NCBI GenBank assembly: GCA_965206775.1
Contig: CBDBKU010000002.1
Location: 2,115,705 to 2,179,704, forward strand
Direction: 5' to 3'
Length of the DNA stretch: 64,000 bases
DNA from: Bryobacterales bacterium
Lineage (GTDB): Bacteria > Acidobacteriota > Terriglobia > Bryobacterales > UBA6623
The position numbers and the translations under genes were made by a program. The stretch's first letter is position 1, and each line of letters opens with the position of its first letter. Below are positions 3,140-59,326 of the stretch, piece after piece. Under the pieces are notes generated by a model. The model made no database searches, was not told the DNA's origin, and was given only the letters and a program-made list of their open reading frames with translations.

Positions 3140-3996
3140 CCTACATCACCAACGAATCCACTGAATGACTCGCCGCCCGAGCCTCCCGCTGTATCGAGTC
3201 CCGGGAACTGGTGCGGTCCCTCCGCATCCGCCACGGCGTCTCGGCGCACCAGGACTGGCGGCAGGATCGGAAGCCCTGGCGGCACGGTCAGATTAGCCAT
3301 CCCTACAGAGCCAGCGTCCAGGCGGTCCGTTCCCGGATCCGCGTGTGTTCAGCCACAGTGCCGGGCATCGGAAGCTGCGGGAAAGGGGTGTTTCGCGCAA
3401 TAGAGTGGTGACTGCGGTCAGAATGGCCTCGGCGGGCGCCGTACGCAGGACTTTGCCGGGACGATTCCGGAGATTCACGGGTACGCCTGGGCTGGGTTGC
3501 AGCGGGTTCCGGGCCTGGTCGTCCCTCGATCGCTGCTACAGGGAAGTGATGTCAATAGGCGCATGCGATTCGCCGTTCCGCCCGGTGACTGGCTTGCTCT
3601 CAGTCCCGATAGCAGGGAGTTCCCAATGGGCGCGTGGCTCTTCGAGCCGGCTGGCAGGGAAGTCGCATTTTCGGGCTGTCGGCTGGGGGCGGTGTCGCCA
3701 CCGGGCGGCGGTCCGGGGCCGCAAGCAGGGCCGGGCTGGCTCGAACGCCTGCAAGTCGCGCGCCGGGGGAGACTCTTTCGCTCGGGGCTTCGCGTGTGCC
3801 ATGAGCATGGGACTCTATTCCACGGAGCCTACTGCCAGGAGGTCCGCCACGTCCGTCGGCTGCGACTCGTACACAGCAAAAAGGGCCGCTTACCTTTCCA
3901 TCAGCATTCCTTGCTGGCGGCTGACGGGGAGCCGGCGAGCCCGCGCCTCGCCCGTCCAAACGGCCAAGAGCTGCGGCGACCCGCCGTGCCGATCGT

Positions 3997-5336
3997 CTAA
4001 TAGCGCTGGTTGCGCGACACTCGAATCCTGCGGCTGCGATTGTCGGCGAGCCAGATGTCGCCGTCGCGGTCCACCGCCATCTGCCTAACGGAAAACCCGC
4101 CGCTCCGCGCAGGCCCACCGTCGCCTCCATAGCCCGAGTCTCCCGTACCCGCAATCGCCGAGACGACACCTTCCCCGTTTATTCTCAGCACCCGATGCTC
4201 ATCCGCAACAAGCAGGTTTCCGACCTCGTCCAGTGCGAGCGCCTCAGTCACGATGCTCCAGGAGCCAAGGTTCTTCACGACGGAAATCACACCGGATGCG
4301 TCGACCCGGCGGATCTGTCGGCCGTCGGAGACGTACACGTTACCCTCCCCGTCCGGGACGAGCCCTCTGCAAGGATCGCTGAGCCGGGCCAGAGTGGCCT
4401 GGCCGCCGTCGCCGTCACTCCCTCTATCGCCCGTGCCAGCGATCGTGGAGATGCGACCCGCGGTATCAATCTTCCTGATGCGGTAACTGCTCGAGGAAGC
4501 GAAATACACAATGCCCACAGGATCCGCGGCAATCTCGCAGACCTAGCCGAGCCGGGCTTCGGAAGCCGGCCCCCCGTCGCCGGAAAACCCTCGTTCCCCG
4601 GTTCCGGCCAGCGTCGAGATCGTGCCCGCCTGGTCAGCCGTGCGAATCCTCCAATTCGAGCGGTCAGCGAAATGGACTCTTCCAATCCCGTCTGCCGCGA
4701 TTGCACCCGGGCTTCTCAGCTCTGCCGCAGTCGCCGGCCCGCCGTCCCCGCTGTAGCCCGAATCTCCGGATCCGGCGAACGGAGTCACCATCCCCGAAGC
4801 ATCCAGCTTCCATATGCGGCCTCGGTCGCTGAAGACCACCTCTCCTGGGGCGATCGGAGCAACACCCGCTGGCCCTTCAAGCGGAATCCCGAGAGCCGTG
4901 CCCCCGTCTTCGGTCCATGGCGAGGCGCCTGAACCCGCGAAGGTGCTGATAGTGCCGCCCGAGTCGATTCGGCGGATCCTGTCGTACACGGCCGCATAAG
5001 CGTTGCCCATGCCGTCCACTTCGACGGCGCGAGGATAGCTCACATAGGCCTCGACCGCGGGTCCCCCGTCCCGTCGGGTGCAGCAAGTCCCACCTCCGGC
5101 GATTGTCGTGATCACCCCGGACTGATCGACCCGACGAATTCTCCTGTTCAGGTAGTCGGCGATGTAAACCCTCCCAGCTTCGTCCACCGCGACCCCCCGG
5201 GGCCGGTCGAACCGAGCCTCGGTCGCTGGCCCTCCGTCCCCTGAGTAGCCCTCCTCGCCGGTACCCGCAAAGGTTGTGATCATACCGGCCGTATCGATCC
5301 TGCGAATCCGGCTGTTCTCGTAGGCGGCGACGTAAG
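3997..5336 (-). pseudogene. NHL-repeat protein, 5' truncated by IS, with in-frame TAG at 4543-4545
   Basis: Repeated AGTG..GYSGDGGPA..A.L..P.GVAVD..G.VYIAD..N.RIRRID units; ORFs 4543.. and 3997..4518 are in the same frame; paralog at 62901-64000. Confidence 0.85.
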
Positions 5337-14261: not shown

Positions 14262-15790
14262 TCCCCCGCCGCCGTCCACCTTGTGGTCCCCAGCGTCCGT
14301 GATGGCATGCGCTCCGAGATCGAGAACTGCGTCCGTCCCGCCCTCGCTCCGGATGCTCCCGCCGTTCAGTGTCAGCGCGTTTGCCGCGATGCCGATCCCA
14401 TCAGTGTCCACGTCCTCCGCCTGCACTTGGTAGCGGAAGAACAGGGCAGTCCCTTCACGACTCGGCGTCCAGAAGGAAGCGTGGCGCGTCTGGCTGCCCA
14501 CGGTGAGTGCCAGTCTGGGGCTTCCGGTGGCCTCGATCTGCGAGGTGAATAGGACCCAAACGGTGATGAATTCTCCCGCTCGGTAGGCGGTGCCGTTCGA
14601 GGGGCTGCTGAAAATCCCCGCGCCACTCACTTCCGGAGCAATCGCAATGCTGCCGTCCACCTTGTGGCCCGCGGAGTTCAAGATGGCGTGGGCAGCGAGA
14701 CCGAGATGCGCATCCGTCCCGCCCTCGCTCCGGATGCTGCCGCCGTTCAGAGTCAGCGCGTTCGCCGCGATGCCGATGCCATGAGTGTCCACGTCCGCCG
14801 ACTGCACCTGATAGCGGAAGAGCAGGATAGTCCCTTCGCCGCTCGGCGCCCAGAAGGAAGCGTGGCGCGTCTGACTGCCCACTGTGAGTGCCAGTCCGGG
14901 GCTTCCGGTGGCCTCGATCCGCGAGGTGAATTGGACCCAAGCGGTGATGAATTCTCCCGCCCGGTAGGCGGTGCCGTTCGAGGGACTGCTGAAAATCCCC
15001 ACGCCGCTCACTGTCGGCGCACTCGCAATGCTGCCGTCCACCTTGTGGCCCGCGGAGTTCAAGATGGCGTGGGCGCCGAGACCGACATCCGCATCCGTCC
15101 CGACCGCACTCCGGATGCTGCCGCCGTTCAGTGTCAGCGCGTTCGCCGCGATGCCAATGCCGTCCGTATCCACGTCGTCCGACTGCACCTGGTAACGGAA
15201 GAATACGAAAGTCCCGTCGCGACTCGGCGTCCAGTAGGAAGCGTGGCGCGTCTGGCTGCCCACGGCGAGTGCCAGTCGCGGGCTCCCGGCCGCCTCTATT
15301 CGGGTGGTGAATTGGACCCAAGCGACAATCGGTTCGCCCACCCCGTAAGCGGTACCGTTCGACGGGCTGCTGGAAATCCCCGCACGGCTTACCTTCGGGA
15401 CGGTCGCCATGCTGCCATCGACCTTGTGATCCGCGGCACTGGCAGTCACTGGTCCTGCAAGAGCGAGAGTCGAATCCGCGCCGCCAGCGGTCTCGATACT
15501 TCCGCCATTCAGAGTCAACGCGTCGGCCGCGATGCCGATTCCATCCGCGTCTCGATCCTCCGCCTGTACCAGGTAGTTGAATTCCAAGCTCTTGTAGCCT
15601 GCCTCGCAAACGCTCTTCGATCCATTGCCGGTCCAGGGTAACCGACGAGTGCGGTCGCCCACGCCGAGATCCAGTGCTGGTGTCCCGTCCACCTCGACAG
15701 GATCGGCGAAGCTTACGCGGACTCGGATCTCCTCGCCTGCTCCATAGGTGTCACCGTCTTGGGGATAGCCATCGATCGTCACGGCGTTCG
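14262..15790 (-). repeat. Four tandem ~381-bp (127-aa) coding repeats
   Basis: Unit SSPSNGTAY..GE.I...P.LALTVG..FRYQVQ..DVDTDGIGIAANALTLNGGSI..HKVDG; shared motif at ~14271, 14652, 15033, 15414. Confidence 0.9.
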
Positions 15791-21212: not shown

Positions 21213-21943
21213 CTGGACTGACTCGTGACAGGTTTCGCGTGCTCGACAGCGGCGAGCAGCAAGAGATTTCAGTGTTCGAAGCCGACGAATCCGGATGCTG
21301 ATGCGCGATCCTGCTCGACACGACTGGCAGCATGAAGCGGGCGCTTCCCACGGTCAAGCGAGCGATCCTGGAATTCATCGACGATCTGCGATCGAACGAC
21401 TCGGTTGCCGTGTACGCTTTCAGCACGCAGCTGGAGCAGCTCCAGCCGTTCAAACTGGACAAGAACGAAGCGAAACGAGCTGTTCTGAAGACGCGTGCGG
21501 ACGGTGCCACGGCGCTGTTCGATTCCGTGCATCGCGTCACGAAGGATCTTGCCGGGGTCGATGGCAAGAAGGCGCTCCTGGTCTTTACCGACGGCGACGA
21601 CAATTCCAGCGTGCTCAACGCCCGATCAGCGATCCGACAGGCTCGAGCCGTCGGGGCGCCGGTGTTCGCGGCGGCACAAGGGCAAGCTCTCGAGAACCGC
21701 GACCTAGTCAAGCAGATCCACGAGCTGTCCCGATCCACTGGAGGCCTGGCATTCGAGGTGAAGGAGAGCGGCCAGGCGCAGCGGATCTTCTTCGAGATTC
21801 CCAGAGCGCTGAATCACGGCTATCTGCTTGCATTCCGCCCGCCTCAGGCAACGAGCGGCGAATGGCGAGACATCGAGGTGGCTGTGTCTGGAGTCAGGAG
21901 ACCGCAGATCCGCGCGAAGAGCGGCTACTTCGCCGTTCCGTAG
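21213..21943 (+). pseudogene. Acidobacterial VWA-domain protein copy 1 (5' truncated, small deletion)
   Basis: LLDTTGSM, GATALFDSV, KKALLVFTDGDDNSS, IRAKSGYFAVP. Confidence 0.85.
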
Positions 21944-22754
21944 GGCAGTGCTCCTGGAGCCCGCGGGCTGCACGGCCGGGAGGGAGGCTCCAGCGCGAGC
22001 CAGTCGCGCATGGTCCTGGCTGCGATGCATGCGCGTCGGGCCTTCTCCTGCCTCGCGGTCCGGCGTGCGGGGTTCCCGCCGCAGGGACTGGAAGGTCGCG
22101 ATAGCGCGGATCCGGCACTGGGCCAGATCGCGCGGGTGTCGGGTTCGGATGTCCTGCAGGGGGATTTCAAGGGGCGATCTCGGTTGTACGGCTTGCTGTC
22201 CCGAAGCCAGGAGGCTGCGGGCGCGGGCCGGCCGGAATGCCCGCCGGATTCCAATTGCGCAGGGAGTCGAGCGGGGCTGGCGGAGAAGGCGGCTGCGCCT
22301 CGGCGACGGCGCTCAGCCGGACCGGCACCGCAGGCGGGCCAAGATGAATGCGCGATCAAGCAGACAGGCGGAACCGGCCTCGCCACTTCCCTACCAGCAC
22401 ATGCAGACGGTTCCGCTCTCGGTCGGCGCTGCGGAAAATCACGAGCAGCATTAAATCGTTGAATCGGCTCCGCAGCACGGCATCGATGCGCTCGTTCGGG
22501 GCGGGTTCCGGCGTCGGGGAAATCGAGACGCTCGTCTCATGTCCGGTCGCGCTGCAGCATCTCGCTGGTGAAATTCCGCTGCCGGTCCCTCAAGCTCTCA
22601 CCGAAGCGGGTGCGAGAACATGTCCTGCCGGTCCCTCCGCGAGGACGTGCTGGACCCGGCAGCGATCGCGCGGGACTTGCAGGGCACTGACTCATCTGGC
22701 GCATCGGAGCAGCCGATGGCGGTGACGGCAGCCACACATAGTCGACTGGTGGGT

Positions 22755-23135
22755 TCAAGCAGCTGGGCGCGGCGGAGCGGTCAGCGACACGTCCAGCCTC
22801 ACCTGGTTGTAGGGGACCCGCGGCACCAGCGTGCCGCGCCGTCCCTGCTCCAGTTCCACGAGGCCGTAGCGCGACATTGTCTTCAGGGTCCGTGACAAAT
22901 TCGACGTGCTGCGCCCTGCGAGCGCCGCCAGCTCGGTGAGCGAGTCCGGATGCTCACGGGCAATCAGCGCCAGAAGCTCTCGATTGCGTTGCGAAAGCAC
23001 TTTCGCAAAGCTCTCGATGGACGTGAACCAGACCGTCGGCTCGCCCGTGGCAGGCTTGTGCTTCCCGCGGGCAATCGCCATGGTGCGCGCCTTCATCCGA
23101 TCGTAGCCGGCGATTCCGATCTGCAATGTCTTCAT
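22755..23135 (-). CDS. HTH antitoxin/regulator paired with DUF6516 toxin
   Basis: WFTSIESFAKVLS..NRELL..PDSLTELAALAGRSTSNLSRTLKTM; identical protein at 56825..57205. Confidence 0.8.
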   Translation of the reverse strand: MKTLQIGIAGYDRMKARTMAIARGKHKPATGEPTVWFTSIESFAKVLSQRNRELLALIAREHPDSLTELAALAGRSTSNLSRTLKTMSRYGLVELEQGRRGTLVPRVPYNQVRLDVSLTAPPRPAA

Positions 23136-23513
23136 GGGATCGCTCCCCTTTCCTTCAAAACCGCGTCCACTTCCTTCCAGAAATCCTCAAGCAGTGTGGA
23201 CGCATCCTTGTACATAGGGCCGGATCGTCCGCATCCGGTGCGGATGGTCGCGCTCCCCGCGTCGCCGCCTACCCGGGCCTCGCCTTTCCCTCACCGGGTG
23301 CGCATTGTCGAAACCGACCAGCCTAGTGCCATCCGGGGCGTGCAGCGTGAGCGAATAGCTCTTATCTCTTGCAAGAGATAAGCGGCATTATCTCTTGTTC
23401 TTTTTTATCTCAGGTAAATTCGGTTTTTCCATGTTTTCCATGTAGTAATTCGACGATTACACGACATAATCGGAACTCCAATCGTTGCCCTTCAATGAGG
23501 ATAGGAGTTCAGA

Positions 23514-24750
23514 ATGAGCGATACCACCGGCAATCCACTTGTCCGCCCACAATGGCGCGACGGTCCCTTGGCGGGCTGGCTCGATGCGTTCGCGGATTGG
23601 GTGAGCGCACAGGGCTACGCTCGCACAACGATCAGTCGCAAGATCCTGCTGGCAGCCTGTTTCAGCCAATGGCTCAAGCAGGGAGCAATCGAGCTCGCTG
23701 ACATCAACTCGGATCACCCGGCCCAATACCTCCAGCATCGAGCCCGCAGGCTGCGACCCCACCAAGGCGACAGAGCCGCACTTCGGCAACTAACAGATTT
23801 TCTGCAGCAAGAGGGCGTGCTGGCGTTCGAAGAGGCGCCCGCAGGCCCCATGACCGATGCCGAGCGCTGCGTGCAGGCCTATGCACACTACTTGCGCCAG
23901 ATGCGTGGCCTGGCACCGGCGACGCTAGCGAACTACCTGCCGTTTGTCCGGAGCCTGCTGCAGCACCGGTTCGCCTCGGGGCCTGTGACACTCTCGTCCC
24001 TGTCTGCTGACGCTGTCGTGCGGTTCGTTCAACGCAAGGCGCCGGATTTGCACCCGAAGCGTGCGAAGGTCATGGCCTCCGCGCTGCGGTCCTTTCTCCG
24101 CTATGCCTGCTATCTCGGCGAGACCAGTCCGGAGTTGATCGCCGCCGTTCCAGTGGTCGCCAACTGGTGCAGGCCACAGATACCGAGAGGGATTGCAGCC
24201 GATCGTTACCGCGCTGTTGGCCAGCATCGATCGCAGTTCCGCCTTGGGCCGTCGCGACTATGCCATGCTGCTGCTGCTTGCACGGCTGGGATTGCGTGCG
24301 AGCGAGATCCAGTCGCTCGAACTCGATGACATTAACTGGATCAACGGAACGCTGCGGCCGTGGACGAAAGGCGGGAAGCGCACCACTTTGCCCCTGTCCC
24401 AGGAGGTTGGTGAGGCGATCGCCGATTACCTGCGTCACAGCCGCCCGCCGTGTCAAAGTCGGAATGTATTCCTGCGTGTCAAGGCCCCGATCGGCAGATT
24501 CCGGGGGGCGAGCGGAATTTCCTGCGTGGTCCGCCGCGCCATCCAGAGTGCCGGCGTGGTCGCTCCGACAAACGGCGCACATCAGTTCCGCCACGGTCTC
24601 GCAGCCGGCATGCTGCACAACGGGTCCTCGCTCGCCGAGATCGGCGACGTTCTGGGGCACGCCCATCCCGACACCACCAAGATCTATGCCAAGGTTGATT
24701 TGGAGGCTCTCCGCGCACTGGCCCTTCCCTGGCCGGGAGGTGTCCGATGA
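23514..24750 (+). pseudogene. ritA: RitA tyrosine recombinase, frameshift near 24200
   Basis: ORFs 23514..24329 and 24193..24750 together give SALRSFLRY, RRDYAMLLLLARLGLRASE, HQFRHGLA, VLGH..TTKIYAKVD. Confidence 0.85.
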
Positions 24751-25691
24751 ACACGCTTCGCGAAGCCATCCACGAGTACATCGATATGCGGCGCAAACTG
24801 GGGTTCAAACTGAACAGCACGCGCCGGGCGCTGCTCGCCTTCGCCACGTTCATGGAACAGAAGCAGGCGCCATTCATCACTGTGGAACTGGCCCTTGCCT
24901 GGGCGCAGCAGCCCGTGCATGCCCAACCGTCGCATTGGGCACAGCGATTGAGCTACGTGCGCGTGTTCACACGCCATCGCAAGGCCGCCGATGCACGCAC
25001 CGAGATCCCGCCGCCCGGATTGCTGCCCTTTCAGCCGCAGCGGGCAAGACCCTATCTGTATACCGACGACGAGATCCGCAAGCTGCTGCAGGCTGCGCTC
25101 GACATGCCGTATGCCTACGAACGATGCGCATTGAATCCCTGGCTCTACCATTGCCTGTTCGGCCTGTTGATCGTTGCAGGCCTCCGCGTGGGGGAGGCGT
25201 GCAATCTCGAGCTCCGGGATGTCGATATCGACGCCGCGGTGCTGACCATACGCGGTGCCAAATTCGGTCGCGACCGTCTGGTTCCGTTGCACGGTTCGAC
25301 CTGCGCGGTCCTTGCCGACTATATCGCCCGGCGCGAGCGTCACTGGCAGAGGCGTCCGGTGACGCCTTTCCTGTTTGTTTCAAGCCGGGGCAAGCGGCTC
25401 GACCAGGCGAGTATCACCCGCACGTTCCACCAACTGTCGCGCCTGATCGGCCTGCGCGGCAAGACCGCCAGTCACGGGCCACGCCTTCATGACATGCGGC
25501 ACAGTTTCGCAACGAAGGCCTTGGTGAACTGGTATCGGCACGATCAGGATCCGGACCGTCTCCTGCCAGTCCTCTCCACCTGGCTTGGTCATGTGAAGGT
25601 CGCCGATACGCAATGGTATCTCGAAGCCTCGCCCGCATTGATGCGCGAGGCCATGCGCCGCCTCGAAAGCCGCTGGGAGGACCAGTCATGA
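24747..25691 (+). CDS. ritB: RitB tyrosine recombinase
   Basis: GLRVGEA, AKFGRDRLVPLH, HDMRHSFA, LSTWLGH, TQWYL; ATGA overlaps on both sides. Confidence 0.9.
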   Translation: MNTLREAIHEYIDMRRKLGFKLNSTRRALLAFATFMEQKQAPFITVELALAWAQQPVHAQPSHWAQRLSYVRVFTRHRKAADARTEIPPPGLLPFQPQRARPYLYTDDEIRKLLQAALDMPYAYERCALNPWLYHCLFGLLIVAGLRVGEACNLELRDVDIDAAVLTIRGAKFGRDRLVPLHGSTCAVLADYIARRERHWQRRPVTPFLFVSSRGKRLDQASITRTFHQLSRLIGLRGKTASHGPRLHDMRHSFATKALVNWYRHDQDPDRLLPVLSTWLGHVKVADTQWYLEASPALMREAMRRLESRWEDQS

Positions 25692-26686
25692 CCCAAACGA
25701 CCAGCCTGTCGCCCCTGCTGGAGCGATTCTTCGTTCAGCGCCTGATGAGTCAGCGCCAGGCGAGCCCGCACACCATCAAATCCTATCGGGATACCTTCCG
25801 CCAGCTCCTGCTCTTCGCACAGCTGGGTCTGGAACGACAACCGTCGGACCTGCAATTCGAGCAGATCGATGCGCCGCTGGTCGTGGCTTTCCTCGAGGAG
25901 TTGGAAACCAAGCGTGGAGTGAGCGCTCGCAGCCGCAACACGCGGCTTGCGGCTGTTCATTCCTTCTTTCGGTTCGCGGCCTTCGAACTGCCCAGCCATG
26001 CGGAACAAATCCAGAGGGTGCTCGCCATCCCCGGCAAGCAATACACGCGCAAGCAGGTCGATTTCCTCACACCGGACGAAGTTGATGCCCTGCTCGCGGC
26101 ACCGGATACCGGCACCTGGTCGGGACGGCGCGATCACGCCTTCATTCTCACCGCCGTGCAAACGGGATTTCGGCTGTCCGAAATGACAGGACTGAAGCGC
26201 GACGACTTTGTCGATGGCCATGGCCAGCACCTGCGCGTCGTGGGAAAAGGGCGCAAGGAGCGCTGCACGCCCTTGGCCAAGCCGACCAGGAATGTACTGA
26301 GGAGGTGGTTGCAGGAACCCCCGCGCGGCTCGGACCGCGTGCTCTTCCCCAGCGCCAGGGGCAATCGGCTCAGCGTGGACGGCGTGCAGTACATATTGAA
26401 CAAGCATCGGGAGACGGCCTCGCAGCAGTGCCCGTCACTGGCAGACAAACGGGTTACCGTCCATATCCTGCGTCACACCGCCGCGATGGACCTCCTGCAG
26501 GCCGGCGTGGACCGGTCGGTCATCGCTCTCTGGCTCGGACATGAACGCGTCGAGACCACTCAGATCTATGTCGAGGCAACGCTCGCCATGAAAGAGCAGG
26601 CACTTGCCAAGACATCGCCGCGAACAGGCGATTCGGGACGATACCAGCCGCCTGACGCTCTTCTCGCCTTTCTGGGCAGCCTCTGA
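25688..26686 (+). CDS. ritC: RitC tyrosine recombinase
   Basis: HTIKSYRDTF, QTGFRLSE, GKGRKERC, HILRHTAAM, LWLGHERVETTQIY; 332 aa. Confidence 0.9.
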   Translation: MTQTTSLSPLLERFFVQRLMSQRQASPHTIKSYRDTFRQLLLFAQLGLERQPSDLQFEQIDAPLVVAFLEELETKRGVSARSRNTRLAAVHSFFRFAAFELPSHAEQIQRVLAIPGKQYTRKQVDFLTPDEVDALLAAPDTGTWSGRRDHAFILTAVQTGFRLSEMTGLKRDDFVDGHGQHLRVVGKGRKERCTPLAKPTRNVLRRWLQEPPRGSDRVLFPSARGNRLSVDGVQYILNKHRETASQQCPSLADKRVTVHILRHTAAMDLLQAGVDRSVIALWLGHERVETTQIYVEATLAMKEQALAKTSPRTGDSGRYQPPDALLAFLGSL

Positions 26687-26952
26687 ACGCCATCGGATTA
26701 TGTCTGGTGAAATGTACGCAAGTGGCGAAAACTCTTTGGGTATGCTGCCACTTGGCGTGATTTCCAACAGTAACCCGAGATAAAAATGAACAAGAGATAA
26801 TAGCTCAGCCGGTGCGGCCGTTCCGCAGTCACCTCGGTTCGCAGCACAACGAACTTCACCCAGTGTCCGATCTCGTCTATAAACAGCGTCTGGCCGTGGA
26901 GGTCGAGTAGAGTGTCAAGCCCGGGATCACGGTCAGGCGCAGCACTGAAACA

Positions 26953-26973
26953 TGTTATCAGTTTCTGATAACA
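26953..26973. promoter_or_regulatory. Palindromic operator upstream of the TumE/HTH operon (copy A)
   Basis: TGTTATCAG-TTT-CTGATAACA; same sequence at 57580-57600. Confidence 0.6.
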
Positions 26974-27347
26974 AAACAAAGGCAGACACCAGGCGTTCCG
27001 GTCTCGGCGCCAGTCGGGGAACATGGCGCCACAGCCTTGCCGACGTCCCTCTCCCACCAGAACCTTGCGCCACTTTGAACCGCTCCATACGCTTCCTATC
27101 TCCCAAGATCCCCGAGGAACCCCCTATGTCAGAAGTCTTTGCGATGGACGCCGGCATACCCTACGCCTTCGCACCCTCGCCCGATTCCATCAAAGGAGCA
27201 CCGCACCGCATTCATATGGTCTTCAATGGCTCAGACGGCCGGTGCTGGTCGACCGATACCAATCTGATGGCGGTCACACAGGAGTGCGATCGAGATCTGC
27301 GATGGACAGATTCTGCAATGGACTCTTCCTCCGCCACGGAAGTTCAC

Positions 27348-27618
27348 CGCGTCAGGATTCGGTTGCTGACCTGTAGTTCCGATCTCATTTGTGGGTAGCT
27401 TGGCGGATTGGGGGGCGGGCGCTGTTTGGCGTCGTCAGCCGACGCCCGGTTCCGGCGACGCAGCGCCGCATCCCGTTTGTTGCACTGCAAGGGCGTCGGG
27501 CCGCTGACTAGCTGGCGTCCCAGCTCGGCGAAGGCCCGGGGCAATTGGTCGAGCGTGCCGCACACGATCCGCACGTAGTCCGGATGCTGCAGGTTCGCTG
27601 CCAGGGCGGCCTGGGGTG
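27348..27618 (-). mobile_element. Transposase C-terminus and element end remnant
   Basis: PQAALAANLQHPDYVRIVCGTLDQLPRAFAEL; homologous to 38285-38735 and 57975-58245, all ending at CGCGTCAG. Confidence 0.6.
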
Positions 27619-27619
27619 G

Positions 27620-28699
27620 CGGATCGCCAGCTTCGGAACTCTGGGGCTGCAGCAGGCGAAACGCCGTTTCGAGCGTGCCGCGAACAGGCGCAAGCCCCGC
27701 CTTCCCGAACTCGACCGGCTCTCCAGGAACATGCGGGCCGAGCTGCTGCCGCATGTGGCTGCGGCGCTCATGGGAACGGTCTACGCGTACTATCTCCGCC
27801 CCGAGGACCTTCCGGTCGCCGAGGATCCCCTGTTCCTGCGCAAGCACGAGTTCTTCGATCTGGAGCGCCCGTTTCTCGAGAACTTCTTCGGCGTGACGCA
27901 ATTGAAAGGGATCGGGGAAGACACGGGCGCTTTCATCGATGGCGGTTTCGCCGGAATCGCTACGGCTGCGGGCCGAACCGCCCAGTTCGGAGTCCGGATT
28001 CTGGATCCCGATGCAGCAGCAGTGGCTCAAATCGAACTGGCTTCGCTGCGATCGACACGCTGGCGGGGGTTGCGCGAGGCCGACATGCGCCGGTTTTCGC
28101 TGACGGTACTCCTCGGGCGCGAATGGATCGTCGAAGCGGCATCCGAGGAGTCCTTGCGGTCCGGATTGCTGGGAGCCGTGGCCGGAGTCCTGTCCGCCAG
28201 CCGCACCCGCCGGGTGCTATCGTCGCTTGACGAGCGGAACTGGCCCGCTGTGCGGGGATCGTTCTCGCTGTCCGATCTCTATCGCCTGGGCCGGGCCCGG
28301 CTTTCCGCCCGTTCCGACGTGTTCCGAGAATCCCCGGTTGCCAGGGCCCTTGCAGCGTTGCCGGCAGATGCCGGGTCCTGGGACGGGATGGGGTCGATAC
28401 GGTCCAAGACCTTCGGCTATTCCCGGCCGCGCATGTGGGAGGATGCCCCGTACGAAGAATACGAGCGCTACCTTTCGGACATCATGATCGCGGAACGAAC
28501 GGCGGAACTGAAGCTGTACCTAGTCCAGGCGGCCGACAGCCTCGGCGTGCCCGTCGAGACCCTGGCCAGGGTCGCGGAACCTGCGGCGAAGCGCGTTCAG
28601 TCGGAGGTGCAGATGGGCGATCTGTGGGACTGGCGCTCCGTGCTGAGGACCATTGCCGAGCGGACCCGCCCCGCCCTGCAGGAGGCGCTGCTGCGATGA
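27620..28699 (+). pseudogene. 3' fragment of the large VWA-associated hypothetical protein
   Basis: Highly similar to the C-terminal half of 52967..55087; 5' end replaced by an IS remnant. Confidence 0.8.
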
Positions 28700-29622
28700 C
28701 CCGAGCTGCCGCCCTGCCCCTGGCCATCTCGCTCGCCCTCGGGCCCGGCGTCGGTTCGAGCCGCGCATTCGCGCAGGATCCGAATGCCGGTGTCCAATTG
28801 CCGGATGCATCCGAGGATGCGATCTTCACCGCCGTAGCGAGGCTGGTCGAGGTCCACGTGAGCGTGGCGGACGGGAAGAGGCGCTACGTCTCCGGACTGA
28901 CTCGTGACAGGTTTCGGGTGCTCGACAACGGCGAGCAGCAGGAGATTTCGGTCTTTGAAGCCGACGAATCCGGATTCTCGTGCGCGATCCTGCTCGACAC
29001 CACCGGCAGCATGAAGCGGGAGCTTCCCACGGTGAAGCGAGCGATCCTGGAATTCATCGACGATCTCCGATCGAACGACTCGGTTGCCGTGTACGCTTTC
29101 AGCACGCAGCTGTAGCAGCTCCAGCCGTTCACGCCGGACAAGAACGAAGCGAAACGAGCTGTTCTGAAGACGCGTGCGGACGGTGCCGCGGCGTTGTTCG
29201 ATTCCGTGTATCGCGTCACGAAGGATCTTGCCGGGGTCGAGGGCAAGAAGACGCTCTTGGTCTTTACCGACGGCGACGACAATTCCAGCGTGCTCAACGC
29301 CCGATCAGCGATCCGGCAGGCTCGAGCCGTCGGGACGCCGGTGTTTGCGGCGGCACAAGGGCAAGCTCTCGAGAACCGCGACCTAGTCAAGCAGATCCAC
29401 GAGCTGTCCCGATCCAGGGGAGGCCTGGCATTCGAGGTGAAGAAGAGCAGCCAGGCGCAGAGGATCTTCTTCGAGATTCCCAGAGCGCTGAAGCACGGCT
29501 ATCTGCTGGCATTTCGCCCGCCTCAGGCGACGAGCGACGAATGGCGAGACATCGAAGTGGCTGTGTCGGGAGTCAGGAGACCGCAGATCCGCGCGAAGAG
29601 CGGCTACTTCGCCGTTCCGTAG
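28696..29622 (+). pseudogene. VWA-domain protein copy 2, nonsense GAG to TAG at 29113-29115
   Basis: 927 bp, collinear with the intact copies, which read CTG GAG at this position. Confidence 0.9.
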
Positions 29623-29910
29623 GGCAGTGCTCCAGGAGCCTGGGCTGAATAGCCGGGGGGCTGCAGAGCGAGCCAGTCGTGCATGGTCTTAGCTGCGATG
29701 CGAGCGCTCCGGATGTCAGGTCCGAGAACCTGCAGGGCGGATTCTGGGGGGCGATCTCGGTCATACGGCCTCCTGTCCCGAAGTCAGGCGGCTGCGCTCG
29801 GGCGCGGTGGCGGTTGCGCGGATCGGCTCCTATGGTCTTGGGCATCTGACATGGCAAGGCTCGGCCCGGGTGCCCTTGACTTCGCACAGATGCCCGCCTA
29901 TCATCCCGCC

Positions 29911-52966: not shown

Positions 52967-55087
52967 TTGCTGGGTTATTTCTCCGCCCTCGGGCAAGTGG
53001 ACGAATCCCGCCGGCGCTTCTTCACGCAGAGGAGCGGGCGCTTGCGGCAGTTCTTCGAACTGTACAAGGCTTCGCCCGAATTCCGGGAAGGGGGCCGCGC
53101 CAAGGTCCGCGAGAGCCCGTTCCTGGAGCTGCTGCGGGAATTGCCGCTCGGGTCTGACGGCACTGTCACATTCCCGGGCGCGGCGGAAGTTTGGATGGTC
53201 GCGAAGGGCGCGGCCGATGCCAGCAGGCTCGCCCGGAGGCTCCGCAGGAAGGTTGTCCCGGAGGAGGAGGACGAGATTCTGGTCCGACTCGCCAAGACAA
53301 AGTTCCAGACTCCGACCGGACTGCGGTCGCAGGTCGACAAGTTCCTCGCTGCCTCGCGGATCGACCGGCTCAGGAACCAGCCCATGGACAGCGTCGCGGC
53401 GCTGAATTTCGCGCAGGCATTCGGCTCGTTCGAGCACGTCTTCCCGTACTTCGCCACGCTGACCGGCCTGCAATCGCAGCATCTGCGCAGCTTCCTGGCG
53501 TTCGCCGGCAACCTCGAGCCCATCGAGACGGTCAGGCGCAATCATCTGCTAGCGCTGTTCCACTCCCTGGCGGAGATCCTGTGCATCGGCCAGTTGGAGG
53601 GCGTCCTGGCCGAAGACCGAGCCGCCGAGCTGTTCGGTTCGATGTGCCTGCGGCTGTCCAAGGGGAAGGACCCATCCGTCGCAACCGACGCGGCGCTCGA
53701 AATGATCGAACGGATCCTGACGGAGGTCGGGCCCGAAAGCGACGGAACGCAGCCGGATCGACTCGCGCGCAAGGTGCTCGGGGTTGAAGAGCCCGCTTGG
53801 AGACGGGCGGAATTCACGGATGTGCTGAAGCTGCAAAGCGTGCCCGAGCTCTCGGTCCTGTTCCAAGCACGGGACGCTAGCCTGGCACTGGCTTCCGGCA
53901 CGGGGGATGCGCGCGTCCAGGTCGAATCGCTTGACGAGGCGATCCGGCGAATCCCGACGGTCGGGATTCCCAAAGACCTGCGACTGGAAGAAAGGAAGCG
54001 GCTGCTCGCCGGCTTCGGGACTCTGGGGCTGCAGCAGGCGAAACGGCGCCCCGAGCGGGCTGCGAACAGGCGCAAGCCCCGCCTGCCCGAACTGGACCGG
54101 CTCTCCAGGAACATGCGGGCCGAGCTGCTGCCGCATGTGGCTGCGGCGCTCATGGGAACGGTCTACGCGTACTATCTCCGCCCCGAGGACCTTCCGGTCG
54201 CCGAGGATCCCCTGTTCCTGCGCAAGCACGAGTTCTTCGATCTGGATTTCCAGTTTCTGGACAAGTTCTTCGGCGTGACGCAACTGAAGGGGATCGGGGA
54301 AGACACGGGCGCTTTCATCGAGGGCGGTTTCGCCGGAATCGCTACCGCCGCGGGCCGAATCGCCCAGTTCGGAGTCCGGGTTCTGGATCCCGATGCAGCG
54401 GCGCTGGCTCAAATCGAACTTGCGTCGCTGCGATCGACTCGCTGGCGGGGGTTGCGCGAGGCCGACATGCGCCGGTTTTCGCTGACGGTGCTCCTCGGGT
54501 GCGAATGGATCGTCGAAGCGGCATCCGAGGAGTCCTTGCGGTCCGGATTGCTCGGAGCCGTGGCCGGAGTCCTGTACGCCAGCCGCAGCCGCCGGGTGCT
54601 ATCGTCGCTTGACGAGCGGAACTGGCCGGCTGTGCGGGGATCGTTCTCGCTGTCCGATCTCTATCGCCTGGGCCGGGCCCGGCTCTCCGCCCCTTCCGAC
54701 GCGTTCCCGGAATCCCCGGTTGCCAGGGCCGTTGCAGCGTTGCCGGCAGATGCCGGGTCCTGGGACGGGCTGGACCTGATGGGGTCGATACGGCCCAAGA
54801 CCTTCGGCTATTCCCGGCCGCGCATGTGGGAGGATGCCCCGTACGAAGAATACGAGCGCTACCTTTCGGATGTCATGATCGCGGAACGGACAGCGGAACT
54901 GAAGCTGTACCTGGTCCAGGCGGCCGACAGCCTCGGCGTGCCCGTCGAGACGCTGGCCAGGGTTGCGGAACCTGCGGCGAAGCGCGTTCTCTCGGAGGTG
55001 CAGATGGGCGATCTGTGGGACTGGCGCTCCGTGCTGAGAACCTTTGCCGAGCGGACCCGCCCCGCCCTGCAGGAGGTGCTGCCGTGA
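52967..55087 (+). CDS. Large uncharacterised helical protein coupled to the VWA gene; 5' region probably degenerate
   Basis: 706-aa ORF whose stop overlaps the VWA ATG; two further partial copies in the window. Confidence 0.7.
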   Translation: MLGYFSALGQVDESRRRFFTQRSGRLRQFFELYKASPEFREGGRAKVRESPFLELLRELPLGSDGTVTFPGAAEVWMVAKGAADASRLARRLRRKVVPEEEDEILVRLAKTKFQTPTGLRSQVDKFLAASRIDRLRNQPMDSVAALNFAQAFGSFEHVFPYFATLTGLQSQHLRSFLAFAGNLEPIETVRRNHLLALFHSLAEILCIGQLEGVLAEDRAAELFGSMCLRLSKGKDPSVATDAALEMIERILTEVGPESDGTQPDRLARKVLGVEEPAWRRAEFTDVLKLQSVPELSVLFQARDASLALASGTGDARVQVESLDEAIRRIPTVGIPKDLRLEERKRLLAGFGTLGLQQAKRRPERAANRRKPRLPELDRLSRNMRAELLPHVAAALMGTVYAYYLRPEDLPVAEDPLFLRKHEFFDLDFQFLDKFFGVTQLKGIGEDTGAFIEGGFAGIATAAGRIAQFGVRVLDPDAAALAQIELASLRSTRWRGLREADMRRFSLTVLLGCEWIVEAASEESLRSGLLGAVAGVLYASRSRRVLSSLDERNWPAVRGSFSLSDLYRLGRARLSAPSDAFPESPVARAVAALPADAGSWDGLDLMGSIRPKTFGYSRPRMWEDAPYEEYERYLSDVMIAERTAELKLYLVQAADSLGVPVETLARVAEPAAKRVLSEVQMGDLWDWRSVLRTFAERTRPALQEVLP

Positions 55088-56013
55088 TGACCCGAGCTGC
55101 CGCCCTGCCCCTGGCTATCTCGCTCTCACTCGTGCCCGGCGTCGGTTCGAGTCGCGCGTTCGCGCAGGATCCGAATGCCGGTGTCCAATGGCCGGATGCA
55201 TCCGAGGATGCGATCTTCACCGCCGTGGCGAGGCTGGTCGAGGTCCACGTGAGCGTGGCGGACGGGAAGAGGCGCTACGTCTCCGGACTGACTCGTGACA
55301 GGTTTCGCGTGCTCGACAACGGCGAGCAGCAGGAGATTTCGGTCTTTGAAGCCGACGAATCCGGATTCTCATGCGCGATCCTGCTCGACACGACTGGCAG
55401 CATGAAGCGGGCTCTTCCCACGGTGAAGCGAGCGATCCTGGAATTCATCGACGGTCTCCGGCCGAACGACTCGGTTGCCGTCTACGCTTTCAGCACGCAG
55501 CTGGAGCTGCTCCAGCCGTTCACGCTGGACAAGAACGAAGCGAAACGAGCTGTTCTGAAGACGCGAGCGGACGGTGCCACGGCGCTGTTCGATTCCGTGT
55601 ATCGCGTCACGAAGGATCTTGGTGGGGTCGAGGGCAAGAAGGCGCTCCTGGTGTTTACCGACGGCGACGACAATTCCAGCGTGCTCAACGCCCGATCAGC
55701 GATCCGGCAGGCTCGAGCCGTCGGGGCGCCGGTATTCGCGGCGGCACAAGGGCAAGCTCTCGAGAACCGCGACCTAGTCAAGCAGATCCACGAGCTGTCC
55801 CGATCCACTGGAGGCCTGGCATTCGAGGTGAAGAAGAGCAGCCAGGCGCAGAGGATCTTCTTCGAGATTTCCAGAGCGCTGAAGCATGGCTACCTGCTGG
55901 CATTTCGCCCGCCTCAGGCAACGAGCGACGAATGGCGAGACATCGAGGTGGCTGTGTCTGGAGTCAGGAGACCGCAGATCCGCGCGAAGAGCGGCTACTT
56001 CGCCGTTCCGTAG
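55087..56013 (+). CDS. Secreted acidobacterial VWA-domain protein copy 4 (intact, 308 aa)
   Basis: Signal peptide ending AFA-Q; RLVEVHVSV..GLTRDRFRVLDNG..LLDTTGSM..FTDGDDNSS. Confidence 0.9.
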   Translation: MTRAAALPLAISLSLVPGVGSSRAFAQDPNAGVQWPDASEDAIFTAVARLVEVHVSVADGKRRYVSGLTRDRFRVLDNGEQQEISVFEADESGFSCAILLDTTGSMKRALPTVKRAILEFIDGLRPNDSVAVYAFSTQLELLQPFTLDKNEAKRAVLKTRADGATALFDSVYRVTKDLGGVEGKKALLVFTDGDDNSSVLNARSAIRQARAVGAPVFAAAQGQALENRDLVKQIHELSRSTGGLAFEVKKSSQAQRIFFEISRALKHGYLLAFRPPQATSDEWRDIEVAVSGVRRPQIRAKSGYFAVP

Positions 56014-56824
56014 GGCAGTGCTCCTGGAGCCCGCGGGCTGCACGGCCGGGAGGGAGGCTCCAGAGCGAGCCAGTCGCGCATGGTCCTGGCTGCGATGCAT
56101 GCGCGTCGGGCCTTCTCCTGCCTCGCGGTCCGGCGTGCGGGGTTCCCGTCGCAGGGACTGGAAGGTCGCGATAGCGCGGATCCGGCACTGGGCCAGATCG
56201 CGCGGGTGTCGGGTTCGGATGTCCTGCAGGGGGATTTCAAGGGGCGATCTCGGTTGTACGGCTTGCTGTCCCGAAGCCAGGAGGCTGCGGGCGCGGGCCG
56301 GCCGGAATGCCCGCCGGATTCCGATCGCGCAGGGAGTCGAGCGGGGCTGGCGGAGAAGGCGGCTGCGCCTCGGCGACGGCGCTCAGCCGGACCGGCACCG
56401 CAGGCGGGCCAAGATGAATGCGCGATCAAGCAGACAGGCGGAACCGGCCTCGCCACTTCCCTACCAGCACATGCAGACGGTTCCGCTCTCGGTCGGCGCT
56501 GCGGAAAATCACGAGCAGCATGACATCGTTGAATCGGCTCCGCAGCACGGCATCGATGCGCTCGTTCGGGGCGGGTTCCGGCGTCGGGGAAATCGAGACG
56601 CTCGTCTCATGTCCGGTCGCGCTGCAGCATCTCGCTGGTGAAATTGCGCTGCCGGTCCCTCAAGCTCTCACCGAAGCGGGTGCGAGAACATGTCCTGCCG
56701 GTCCCTCCGCGAGGACGTGCTGGACCGGGCAGCGATCGCGCGAGACTTGCAGGGCACTGACTGATCTGGCGCATCGGAGCAGCCGATGGCGGTGACGGCA
56801 GCCACATATAGTCGACTGGTGGGT

Positions 56825-57205
56825 TCAAGCAGCTGGGCGCGGCGGAGCGGTCAGCGACACGTCCAGCCTCACCTGGTTGTAGGGGACCCGCGGCACCAGC
56901 GTGCCGCGCCGTCCCTGCTCCAGTTCCACGAGGCCGTAGCGCGACATTGTCTTCAGGGTCCGTGACAAATTCGACGTGCTGCGCCCTGCGAGCGCCGCCA
57001 GCTCGGTGAGCGAGTCCGGATGCTCACGGGCAATCAGCGCCAGAAGCTCTCGATTGCGTTGCGAGAGCACTTTCGCAAAGCTCTCGATGGACGTGAACCA
57101 GACCGTCGGCTCGCCCGTGGCAGGCTTGTGCTTCCCGCGGGCAATCGCCATGGTGCGCGCCTTCATCCGATCGTAGCCGGCGATTCCGATCTGCAATGTC
57201 TTCAT
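56825..57205 (-). CDS. HTH antitoxin/regulator paired with DUF6516 toxin
   Basis: Protein identical to 22755..23135. Confidence 0.8.
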   Translation of the reverse strand: MKTLQIGIAGYDRMKARTMAIARGKHKPATGEPTVWFTSIESFAKVLSQRNRELLALIAREHPDSLTELAALAGRSTSNLSRTLKTMSRYGLVELEQGRRGTLVPRVPYNQVRLDVSLTAPPRPAA

Positions 57206-57570
57206 GGGATCGCTCCCCTTTCCTTCAAAACCGCGTCCACTTCCTTCCAGAAATCCTCAAGCAGCGTGGACGCATCCTTGTACTCATAGGGCCGGATCGT
57301 CCGCATCCGGTGCCGATGGTCGCGCTCCCCGCGTCGCCGCGTACCCGGGCCTCGCCTTTCCCTCACCGGGTGCGCATTGTCGAAACCGACCAGCCTAGTG
57401 CCATCCGGGGCGTGCAGCGTGAGCGAATAGCTCAGCCGGTGCGGCCGTTCCGCAGTCACCTCGGTTCGCAGCACAACGAACTTCACCCAGTGTCCGATCT
57501 CGTCTATAAACAGCGTCTGGCCGTGGAGGTCGAGTAGAGTGTCAAGCCCGGGATCACGGTCAGGCGCAGC
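57202..57570 (-). CDS. DUF6516/TumE-like toxin (start codon uncertain)
   Basis: LDTLLDLHG..ERPHRLSYSLTLHAPDGTRLVGFDNAH..DHRH..YEYKDASTLLEDFW; ATGA overlap with the HTH gene. Confidence 0.75.
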   Translation of the reverse strand, partial: AAPDRDPGLDTLLDLHGQTLFIDEIGHWVKFVVLRTEVTAERPHRLSYSLTLHAPDGTRLVGFDNAHPVRERRGPGTRRRGERDHRHRMRTIRPYEYKDASTLLEDFWKEVDAVLKERGAIP

Positions 57571-57579
57571 ACTGAAACA

Positions 57580-57600
57580 TGTTATCAGTTTCTGATAACA
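57580..57600. promoter_or_regulatory. Palindromic operator (copy B)
   Basis: TGTTATCAG-TTT-CTGATAACA. Confidence 0.6.
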
Positions 57601-57974
57601 AAACAAAGGCAGACACCAGGCGTTCCGGTCTCGGCGCCAGTCGGGGAACATGGCGCCACAGCCTTGCCGACGTCCCTCTCCCACCAGAACCTTGCGCCAC
57701 TTTGAACCGCTCCATACGCTTCCTATCTCCCACGATCCCCGAGGAACCCCCTATGTCAGAAGTCTTTGCGATGGACGCCGGCATACCCTACGCCTTCGCA
57801 CCCTCGCCCGATTCCATCAAAGGAGCACCGCACCGCATTCATATGGTCTTCAATGGCCCAGACGGCCGGTGCTGGTCGACCGATACCAATCTGATGGCGG
57901 TCACACAGGAGTGCGATCGAGATCTGCGATGGACAGATTCTGCAATGGACTCTTCCTCCGCCACGGAAGTTCAC

Positions 57975-58245
57975 CGCGTCAGGATTCGGTTGCTGACCTG
58001 TAGTTCCGATCTCATTTGTGGGTAGCTTGGCGGATTGGGGGGCGGGCGCTGTTTGGCGTCGTCAGCCGACGCCCGGTTCCGGCGACGCAGCGCCGCATCC
58101 CGTTTGTTGCACTGCAAGGGCGTCGGGCCGCTGACTAGCTGGCGTCCCAGCTCGGCGAAGGCCCGGGGCAATTGGTCGAGCGTGCCGCACACGATCCGCA
58201 CGTAGTCCGGATGCTGCAGGTTCGCTGCCAGGGCGGCCTGGGGTG
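57975..58245 (-). mobile_element. Transposase C-terminus and element end remnant (duplicate of 27348-27618)
   Basis: Same sequence as in copy A. Confidence 0.6.
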
Positions 58246-58246
58246 G

Positions 58247-59326
58247 CGGATCGCCAGCTTCGGAACTCTGGGGCTGCAGCAGGCGAAACGCCGTTTCGAG
58301 CGTGCCGCGAACAGGCGCAAGCCCCGCCTTCCCGAACTCGACCGGCTCTCCAGGAACATGCGGGCCGAGCTGCTGCCGCATGTGGCTGCGGCGCTCATGG
58401 GAACGGTCTACGCGTACTATCTCCGCCCCGAGGACCTTCCGGTCGCCGAGGATCCCCTGTTCCTGCGCAAGCACGAGTTCTTCGATCTGGAGCGCCCGTT
58501 TCTCGAGAACTTCTTCGGCGTGACGCAATTGAAAGGGATCGGGGAAGACACGGGCGCTTTCATCGATGGCGGTTTCGCCGGAATCGCTACGGCTGCGGGC
58601 CGAACCGCCCAGTTCGGAGTCCGGATTCTGGATCCCGATGCAGCAGCAGTGGCTCAAATCGAACTGGCTTCGCTGCGATCGACACGCTGGCGGGGGTTGC
58701 GCGAGGCCGACATGCGCCGGTTTTCGCTGACGGTACTCCTCGGGCGCGAATGGATCGTCGAAGCGGCATCCGAGGAGTCCTTGCGGTCCGGATTGCTGGG
58801 AGCCGTGGCCGGAGTCCTGTCCGCCAGCCGCACCCGCCGGGTGCTATCGTCGCTTGACGAGCGGAACTGGCCCGCTGTGTGGGGATCGTTCTCGCTGTCC
58901 GATCTCTATCGCCTGGGCCGGGCCCGGCTTTCCGCCCGTTCCGACGTGTTCCGAGAATCCCCGGTTGCCAGGGCCCTTGCAGCGTTGCCGGCAGATGCCG
59001 GGTCCTGGGACGTGATGGGGTCGATACGGTCCAAGACCTTCGGCTATTCCCGGCCGCGCATGTGGGAGGATGCCCCGTACGAAGAATACGAGCGCTACCT
59101 TTCGGACACCATGATCGCGGAACGAACGGCGGAACTGAAGCTGTACCTAGTCCAGGCGGCCGACGGCCTCGGCGTGCCCGTCGAGACCCTGGCCAGGGTC
59201 GCGGAACCTGCGGCGAAGCGCGTTCTGTCGGAGGTGCAGATGGGCGATCTGTGGGACTGGCGCTCCGTGCTGAGGACCTTTGCCGAGCGGACCCGCCCCG
59301 CCCTGCAGGAGGCGCTGCTGCGATGA
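58247..59326 (+). pseudogene. 3' fragment of the large VWA-associated protein
   Basis: Near-identical to 27620..28699. Confidence 0.8.

Follow-up and report, generated by a model that had tools for sequence, protein, structure and literature searches.

Elements of the recombinase in trio (RIT) type occur across many bacterial phyla, and their movement has never been reproduced. The locus described here raises the question of what such an element carries into its target and at which sites it could be exchanged. It lies within a stretch of 64,000 nucleotides from a Bryobacterales bacterium (assembly GCA_965206775.1), in which a 3,451-bp insert at 23356-26806 represents one RIT element (ritA-ritB-ritC) interrupting a tumE toxin gene. 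We refer to the whole stretch as the window (C2:2115705-2179704 of the genome denoted G000); other genomes are coded G0xx and individual loci L0xx. The locus amounts to a natural experiment, comprising a filled and an empty site, three substitution-free copies of the element in two permutations, and an intact donor copy. A short junction module enters the target together with the element, is inherited, stands at either end, and is widespread among RITs, and recent copies are circularly permuted with respect to each other. The mobile unit most likely exceeds the three genes and their left and right inverted repeats (IRL-ritABC-IRR) by a 26-bp junction module consisting of an arm, the inverted arm, and a 6-bp spacer, and a circle with two recombination cores is the explanation that we consider likely.

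The filled junctions read gcgaa-TAGCTC-TTATCTCTTG-CAAGAGATAA-GCGGCA-IRL (from 23388) on the left and IRR (to 26800)-TAGCTC-agcc on the right. The empty site in a second copy of the region, duplicate B, reads gcgaa-TAGCTC-agcc at 57428-57433 and contains one TAGCTC, without the palindrome and without GCGGCA. Duplicate A (21215-23361 and 26799-29712) and duplicate B (55285-57433 and 57426-60339) can be aligned over about 5 kb with identities of 97.6% and 98.6%. They are diverged paralogous copies and not alleles in the strict sense. The initial annotation had given every junction sequence correctly, and the filled and empty sites that it described are real, although its term “alleles” has to be replaced by paralogous duplicates. 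The palindrome arms TTATCTCTTG and CAAGAGATAA match the outer tips of IRL and IRR exactly. Allowing up to one mismatch, the 10-mer of the palindrome occurs four times in the window, always at the element, against an expectation of 1.19, and four or more occurrences were found in 3 of 100 shuffles. Genome-wide, 12 of the 13 exact occurrences of the 10-mer are located at three RIT copies.

The insert closely resembles the RIT elements known from the literature (Van Houdt 2009, 2012; Ricker 2013), which share three overlapping tyrosine recombinase genes, inverted repeats, a length of about 3.4 kb, and several identical copies. Three consecutive tyrosine recombinase genes on the same strand (Pfam) overlap through ATGA at 24747 and 25688, and terminal inverted repeats enclose a unit of about 3.5 kb (3,413-3,439 bp across the three copies). 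The repeats at 23387-23415 and 26773-26801 extend over 29 nt with 93% complementarity, and each contains the motif TTATCTC twice in direct orientation, 17 bp apart. RitB shares 69.6% identity with the middle gene of a trio on plasmid 2 of Aromatoleum aromaticum EbN1 and 66% with its counterpart on a Cupriavidus necator plasmid; passages of PMC3414803 name both species as RIT carriers. The recombinases score best against the XerC and XerD profile models, and the inverted repeats enclose these three genes without any accessory gene. In the window copy ritA is split, with the SAM-like and integrase domains falling in separate frames (Pfam). A megablast search with the element against the plasmid collection returned no match.

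Two further copies of the element reside in G000 at C2:104584-108030 (copy 2) and C3:3370042-3373512 (copy 3). No substitution separates the three copies, which differ by insertions and deletions only: the window copy lacks 2 bp in ritA, and the C3 copy carries additional 11 bp and 13 bp in ritB. Copy 2 is intact, encoding RitA of 412, RitB of 314, and RitC of 357 amino acids, and with this intact ritA in the genome, the repair previously called for is not needed. Copies 2 and 3 share a 9.5-kb block with 99.6% identity and were therefore counted as one insertion. Both sister copies have the junctions agcgaa-TGCCGC-palindrome-GAGCTA-IRR'...IRL'-TGCCGC-aggcag. Their direct repeat TGCCGC is the reverse complement of the window spacer GCGGCA, and their spacer GAGCTA is the reverse complement of the window direct repeat TAGCTC. 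Moreover, the palindrome adjoins the ritC end in the sister copies and the ritA end in the window copy. These reciprocal 6-mers, together with the palindrome at the other end, identify the copies as circular permutations of one unit. Both structures share the cyclic order IRL..IRR-TAGCTC-arm-arm'-GCGGCA-, opened at the TAGCTC core in one case and at the GCGGCA core in the other. As for the surroundings of the sister copies, the locus at C2:103104-109530 (L020) is a composite of one RIT inside another, as is L079 in G066; the 9.5-kb block is present twice and may have moved as a unit.

The target of the sister copies is a gene of another RIT. On either side of copy 2 lie the coding sequences for residues 7-368 and 365-418 of a RitA-like protein of 420 residues, and the interrupted gene is followed by a ritB-like gene with a 4-bp overlap; an initial assignment of this target to tumE was wrong. 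The 6-mer of the sister copies corresponds to G-CGG-CA within codons for ...His-Cys-Leu-Arg-His-Ser-Leu-Ala.... Empty homologues of this site in five genomes (G066, G071, G070, G054, and G074) show a single 6-mer each and no palindrome in any of the five. The 6-mers at that position are TGGCGC, TGCCTC, TGCCGC, TGACGC, and TGCCGC, all of them synonymous Arg-His variants. The absence of the palindrome from the empty duplicate and from all five homologous sites bears out the earlier proposal that the palindrome and GCGGCA arrive with the element. GCGGCA had also been proposed to be a carried 6-bp coupling sequence, which agrees with its being the reverse complement of the sister direct repeat and with its match to the Arg-His codons of a recurrent target. 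Likewise, CAAGAGATAA-6 bp-TTATCTCTTG had been suggested as a crossover core, and it is precisely at this point that the unit is opened in the sister copy. The single core recognized at that time is present, but there are two cores at the junction.

Reciprocal pairs are not confined to this lineage. In G066, a different RIT lineage with the arms CTATTCCGAG is represented by two 3,422-bp copies that are 100% identical and lie in opposite element orientation. The first (L047) reads TGCCTC/palindrome/GCGCCA/E/TGCCTC and the second (L048) TGGCGC/palindrome/GAGGCA/E'/TGGCGC, where E denotes the element, and their 6-mers are reciprocal reverse complements. The lineage of the window is also found in G069 at 94-95% identity. 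One insertion is present there twice, with the order TGGCGC/palindrome/GCGCCA/../TGGCGC, and another reads TGCCGC/palindrome/GCGCCA/../TGCCTC; all G069 copies have one common variant base in the second palindrome arm (CACGAGATAA). The loci L050 and L052 share the same flank, palindrome, and spacer with the element in opposite orientation, and the same relation exists among G000 copies of the lineage with the arms AAATGTGCAA. This last lineage, with the 6-mers ATCGAG and CTCGAT, has at least seven copies of the module in G000. In G056, two inverted 332-bp fragments near both ends of contig C1 (L004 and L022), which consist of only the IRR end of the window lineage (99% identity), abut TGCCTC and a target-like flank.

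For a quantitative view, we compared 34 module-bearing insertions with both ends available. The two outer 6-mers are identical in 17 of them, differ by one mismatch in 5, and are unlike in 12. Read as its reverse complement, the spacer equals the 6-mer on the palindrome side in 14/34 (with one mismatch in 8 more) and the far 6-mer in 13/34; it matches at least one outer 6-mer in this way in 17/34, where the chance per match is 1 in 4096. All three 6-mers are related in 10 insertions. A symmetric palindrome unit with a different far 6-mer is seen in L058, L060, L072, and L102, and the far 6-mer matches the spacer while the near 6-mer differs in L051, L125, and L131. The palindrome, previously described as a left-end feature, is indeed on the left in the window, but among the 34 insertions it is found on the ritA side 15 times and on the ritC side 19 times. 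The tips of IRL and IRR are identical to each other in 33 insertions, and the palindrome arm differs from them by one to three bases in 27. Within a lineage, independent insertions have one variant palindrome in common, as seen in G069, G066, G067, and G059. The differences between arm and tips, together with the recurring variants, indicate that the palindrome is inherited and not made at each insertion, contrary to the formation during integration, possibly by a hairpin step, that had been envisaged as a second option in the initial annotation.

The module is a general part of RIT anatomy. We searched for it with a script demanding a 10+10 palindrome with zero spacer, a copy of the arm 5-7 bp further, and the inverse arm at a distance of 2.6-5.2 kb. 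It was detected in other RIT lineages of genomes from the same family (G048, G071, G060, G067, and G059) and on plasmids of Mycobacterium intracellulare, Sphingobium, Phaeobacter (inside ardC), Rhodococcus, and Caballeronia; an imperfect module was recognized by eye on an Escherichia coli IncFIA plasmid. Many of 80 metagenome contigs contain it as well, with arm sequences that vary by lineage. Among 20 metagenome loci with both ends inside the contig, the first script gave 10 matches, some of them false; with a second script and inspection, at least 13 of the 20 have the module and two have none and are flanked by inverted homologous sequence, the remaining five being assigned to neither class. 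G000 itself harbors 82 recombinase-like regions, with at least 18 intact trios of about nine lineages. The 18 intact ritA-B-C trios and two broken copies of the window element give 20 RITs, of which 18 have the module (12 found by script and 6 by eye, one of the latter being truncated). In GC-rich DNA, a relaxed script is prone to false matches (about 40 among about 65 in G000); true modules were separated by their AT-rich arms, a repeated arm motif, and adjacency to a trio. The combination of 10+10 palindrome, 6-bp spacer, and direct repeat, whose recurrence had been proposed as a check, is repeated at the sister copies and at other insertions. Scanning the whole collection for the exact palindrome gave 13 loci, three of which repeat the G069 insertions and one of which adjoins a related RIT (L045). 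Four are solo palindromes in GC-rich records of Rhodobacterales and Cupriavidus without a RIT beside them (L034, L035, L039, and L041), two of these with fully symmetric 6-mers; such palindromes may be either footprints or independent sites. The remaining five loci, from other taxa and mostly AT-rich, are probably due to chance.

The choice of target also follows a pattern. Within the genus, three RIT lineages show the Arg-His 6-mers of the ritA-like genes among their repeats and spacers. On the palindrome side, the flank of 8 of the 34 insertions opens with the box II position of a gene resembling ritA, ritB, or ritC. The Leu-Arg-His codons of RIT ritA-like genes are a recurrent target of the window lineage. 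In all five insertions into ritA-like genes that were examined, the palindrome lies on the flank encoding the residues after Arg-His, a fixed placement that two inverted cores with overlap-directed crossover would predict. The tumE site (Arg-Leu-Ser-Tyr-Ser-Leu) and the copy 2 site agree at 28 of 46 positions, and random 46-mers of the window compared with the copy 2 site gave a mean of 13.3 (standard deviation 3.1) and a maximum of 28 in 20,000 draws. We read tumE as a look-alike secondary site on the basis of this resemblance. A target flank acting as a pseudo-arm (TTCGCT versus TTATCT) was also considered; it holds in G000 and is weak in G069, and our reading does not depend on it. In a separate lineage, RITs are inserted into an ardC-type gene in Phaeobacter piscinae pP13_h (L072) and Sphingobium pMI2 (L071), splitting the ArdC N-terminal and the zincin-like C-terminal parts, and the flanks are nearly alike (ccagtgggtc or ccagtgggcc), which suggests lineage-specific target genes.

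These structures can be accommodated by a circle of the form IRL-ritABC-IRR-O1-arm-arm'-O2-, in which two complete cores would lie back to back. Core X would consist of the IRR tip, the overlap O1, and the arm; core Y would comprise the inverted arm, the overlap O2, and the IRL tip. Integration would proceed by a crossover in one core, leaving the other intact beside the junction, and the spacer would then document a different site at which the same circle had integrated. The window copy would represent the unit opened at X in tumE, with the O1 sequence TAGCTC on both sides and Y, holding the O2 sequence GCGGCA, intact by the left junction. Copy 2 would be the unit opened at Y in the ritA-like gene, with GCGGCA (TGCCGC on the other strand) on both sides and X with TAGCTC intact. 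Both the circular or equivalent intermediate and the exchange by tyrosine recombinases over a 6-bp overlap are inferred from the sequences. If O2 is the reverse complement of O1, either core could pair with a polar target, giving a fixed palindrome side and either element orientation, in agreement with what is observed. A spacer that is the reverse complement of the flanking 6-mer could arise when both cores have been used at the same type of target. It could also result if the element flips in place, with Y as the intact core and the far junction as exchange points, and such a flip at a later time would restore the symmetry of the spacer. Unlike overlaps would be tolerated and would segregate at replication as coupling sequences do, from which three classes of outer and spacer 6-mers are expected, and all three are seen. 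The reciprocal, non-symmetric pairs in G000 and G066 would be young descendants of one circle that used two sites. Excerpts of PMC8138268 report RitA with two core-binding domains, and we may speculate that two such domains go with the two motifs that each inverted repeat contains.

Several observations weigh against this model. If crossover between unlike overlaps were strictly conservative, one end should show the donor 6-mer and the other the target 6-mer, but the window has the target 6-mer at both; TAGCTC at both ends would need a circle that already carried TAGCTC, e.g., from the other tumE duplicate, or mismatch correction. The model gives no account of the origin or function of the second core. 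The 34 insertions were picked by a script requiring the module and provide no measure of its prevalence. Three of them (L071, L077, and L168) show no relation among the three 6-mers when one mismatch is allowed. Patchy repair, or recombination from copy to copy, has to be invoked for L021 (TGCCGC and TGCCTC, with the donor TGGCGC) and for L063. No module was found within 70-80 bp of the ends in L065, L069 (Rhizobium johnstonii), L074, and L076. The metagenome contigs L160 and L162 have the palindrome at both ends, with both flanks of the palindrome-side type, and L096, L163, and the EbN1 locus L066 have no palindrome and inverted homologous sequence in the flanks. In L066 (EbN1 plasmid 2, 2120-5580), L067 (C. 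necator plasmid), L096, and L163, the flanks are inverted fragments of recombinase genes ending at Arg-His codons; those of L066 cover 654 bp at 76% identity. From their sequences, the two-palindrome and no-palindrome forms look like reciprocal products of inversion between copies, possibly nested ones. Finally, no circle junction was seen in k=31 contigs of public runs, in which copy 2 accounts in full for the joint leading backward from 26798 to 23354.

Could the palindrome instead be built anew at each integration from the element tips, with off-centre opening and fill-in of a hairpin or snap-back intermediate at one end? The window arms, being exact copies of the inverted-repeat tips, would fit such a process, as would the commonest state among the insertions, a perfect 32-bp palindrome of 6-mer, arm, inverted arm, and reverse-complement 6-mer (14/34). 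Parts of the report by Nielsen et al. (2017, PMC5737581) describe exonuclease-protected RIT DNA without detectable circle junctions and propose hairpins. The arms, however, differ from the tips in 27/34 insertions while the tips agree with each other in 33/34, and identical variants are shared by independent insertions in G069, G066, G067, and G059. Furthermore, the spacers in the window and in G066 are the reverse complement of the 6-mer at the other copy and not of the adjoining one, which a local fold-back cannot yield. We therefore regard reconstruction at each integration as quite improbable. A variant that retains the two-core unit but moves it as single-stranded DNA is unlikely, though less so. 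The junction would fold into a hairpin with a duplex arm'-O-arm core, one strand would be exchanged, and replication would resolve the product, much as at CTX phage attP or integron attC. Symmetric or near-symmetric junctions predominate, with the spacer being the reverse complement of the left target copy O_L in 14/34 and with one mismatch in 8/34, and the unequal outer 6-mers (12/34), some with the donor type on one side only (L058, L060, L072, and L102), would also be in line with strand transfer of this kind. The related SE elements show strand-biased circularisation in passages of PMC10214605, and paired-end mapping found no circle according to parts of PMC5737581. Against this stand the youngest pairs, in G000 and G066, which transposed despite non-complementary O1 and O2, and the occurrence of both polarities of unequal ends, with the donor 6-mer on the palindrome side (L058, L060, L072, and L102) or on the far side (L051, L125, and L131). 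One fixed strand bias would not predict both polarities.

The palindrome and spacer might also be debris, either of a tandem element reduced to its two 10-bp tips or of an insertion beside an older solo palindrome. Formally, the structure is indeed a mini-element, 6 bp, and a full element, and both the solo palindromes without an adjacent RIT (L034, L035, L039, and L041) and the two-palindrome forms (L160 and L162) are of the expected appearance. This is very improbable given that neither the empty duplicate nor the five empty homologous sites contain a palindrome; a precise 10+10 structure with a 5-7 bp spacer and co-varying arms in many lineages would not result from random deletion. A misassembled repeat end deserves mention since a three-copy repeat with inverted ends is an error-prone kind of region. 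We consider it practically negligible: the same junction architecture was assembled at three places in G000, with permutations that are different yet mutually consistent, and it recurs in another genome of the genus, in further genomes and collections, and in contigs from other runs. Contigs of three other public runs contain the joint of IRR, TAGCTC, and palindrome, and two of these runs (X10 and X1) also contain the empty form. All three show the AA missing from the window ritA, and AA is found in most of the depth of other runs. The public runs are represented by k=31 contigs, and at least 38 bp would be required to tell a circle junction from copy 2, so that the joint going back by 3445 in X10, X13, and X1 cannot distinguish the two; the joint skipping 3445 in X10 and X1 can derive from duplicate B. 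In an X10 contig, the sequence beyond the IRR tip (window position 26802) resembles none of the three G000 flanks, and it may represent a further insertion site in that strain.

Having weighed these alternatives, we return to the two-core circle and its implications. A broader statement would be that RITs in general move with two inverted back-to-back cores, that the overlaps record the last sites, that either orientation and in-place flipping occur, and that at least three lineages of the genus home into the box II Arg-His codons of others, disabling competitors. In our judgment, the case for this generalization is evenly balanced. If true, it would amount to transposon-against-transposon targeting among RITs. 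The two-core model would also explain the tangles of truncated recombinase genes on plasmids such as pHG1 and EbN1 plasmid 2, which have long been known, as RITs inserted into, and rearranged by, RITs. The coordinates of the features are compiled in Table 1.

Table 1. Features of the filled and empty tumE sites and of the inserted RIT element (window coordinates).
Feature	Position	Strand	Remarks
O_L, left copy of the 6-bp target TAGCTC	23356..23361	+	Single copy in the empty duplicate, 57428-57433
20-bp perfect palindrome	23362..23381	.	10-bp arms TTATCTCTTG (23362-23371) and CAAGAGATAA (23372-23381)
6-bp spacer GCGGCA	23382..23387	+	Putative overlap of the intact second core CAAGAGATAA-GCGGCA-TTATCTCTTG (23372-23397)
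IRL	23388..23415	+	Inverted pair; direct TTATCTC motifs at 23388 and 23405
ritA, frameshifted	23514..24750	+	2-bp deletion near 24204, giving open reading frames 23514-24329 and 24193-24750
ritB, 314 aa	24747..25691	+	ATGA overlap with ritA
ritC	25688..26686	+	Likely start at the ATGA overlap at 25688; longest open reading frame from 25613, 357 aa
IRR	26773..26800	-	Sequence and inverted-repeat search
O_R, right copy of TAGCTC	26801..26806	+	Followed by agcc
tumE 3' part, duplicate A	23131..23355	-	Mapped from the intact duplicate B gene by alignment
tumE 5' part, duplicate A	26807..27057	-	Open reading frame 26698-27057 reads into IRR
Intact tumE, duplicate B	57202..57684	-	PF20126 TumE, E 1.9e-07, 31.4 bits against a cut-off of 23.4
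HVO_A0114-type helix-turn-helix (HTH) gene adjoining tumE	56825..57205	-	PF25212, E 1.6e-21; duplicate A copy at 22755-23135

The HVO_A0114-type HTH gene is probably the antitoxin partner of tumE. Other repeats are present in the window: overlapping 933-bp repeats with 83% identity at 14268-15575, and duplicates of 1-2.3 kb with 90-94% identity around duplicate B (54000-56310 versus 58245-60541, and 3805-5094 versus 62709-63998).

The end structure has been partly noticed in print and left unexplained. Variable RIT ends and a palindrome overlapping the inverted repeat appear in passages of Van Houdt et al. (2012, PMC3414803), and parts of Nielsen et al. (2017, PMC5737581) describe imperfect palindromic repeats of 47 and 51 bp at RIT ends, for which hairpins were proposed; these repeats probably correspond to the present module. 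Excerpts of Janssen et al. (2010, PMC2864759) mention the ATGA overlaps of rit genes and name radC and a tnpA gene as places of rit insertion, and in Table 1 of Idola et al. (2023, PMC10214605) the RIT entries for target specificity, empty site, and movement are given as not tested. The “RIT” of PMC12306157 stands for rho-independent terminator and is unrelated to recombinases in trio. In the literature on RIT mechanism that we found, there is no description of a palindrome plus spacer, of two cores, or of circular permutation, nor does the RIT literature found describe a filled/empty pair, the 6-bp repeat, the spacer as a site record, the variable palindrome side, or the preference for box II. 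The present findings are partly anticipated. Where variable palindromic ends had stood unexplained, there is now a concrete model with exact boundaries, two candidate cores, and a recurrent as well as a look-alike target. We consider the finding real, general, and mechanistically informative.

Among known mobile elements, Tn554 and the SE elements come close to this scheme. They are tyrosine recombinase transposons with site preference, and the RITs with unequal outer 6-mers (12/34) look similar. A 6-bp sequence from the donor flank is carried in the joint of their intermediate and deposited at the new site, as set out in passages of PMC10214605, which treat the 6-bp fingerprint and footprint of SEs and Tn554. 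They possess one joint with one 6-bp spacer, generate no target repeat, form circles with a strand bias and without an empty site, and encode a non-recombinase accessory protein (TnpC, or Tfp and Srap). RITs, in contrast, have three recombinases and no fourth gene, instead of one large recombinase with an accessory non-recombinase gene, and two cores split by a zero-spacer palindrome. Insertions of the Tn554/SE type are bordered by a donor 6-mer at one end and a target 6-mer at the other, whereas the window element is bordered twice by the target 6-mer and keeps the donor-type 6-mer internally. Elements of the Tn916 type carry 6-bp coupling sequences in their circle, and unlike overlaps are tolerated and segregate at replication. 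They differ from RITs by a single Int with Xis, a single joint, and the lack of both a palindrome of terminal tips and a second core. In the attP of CTX phage, in other Xer-exploiting elements, and in the attC of integrons, two inverted core-like sites can pair within a single strand to form the recombination substrate. CTX-like elements bring no recombinase of their own and use XerCD of the host, and integrons employ one integrase on folded cassettes, whereas the RIT element encodes three enzymes of its own.

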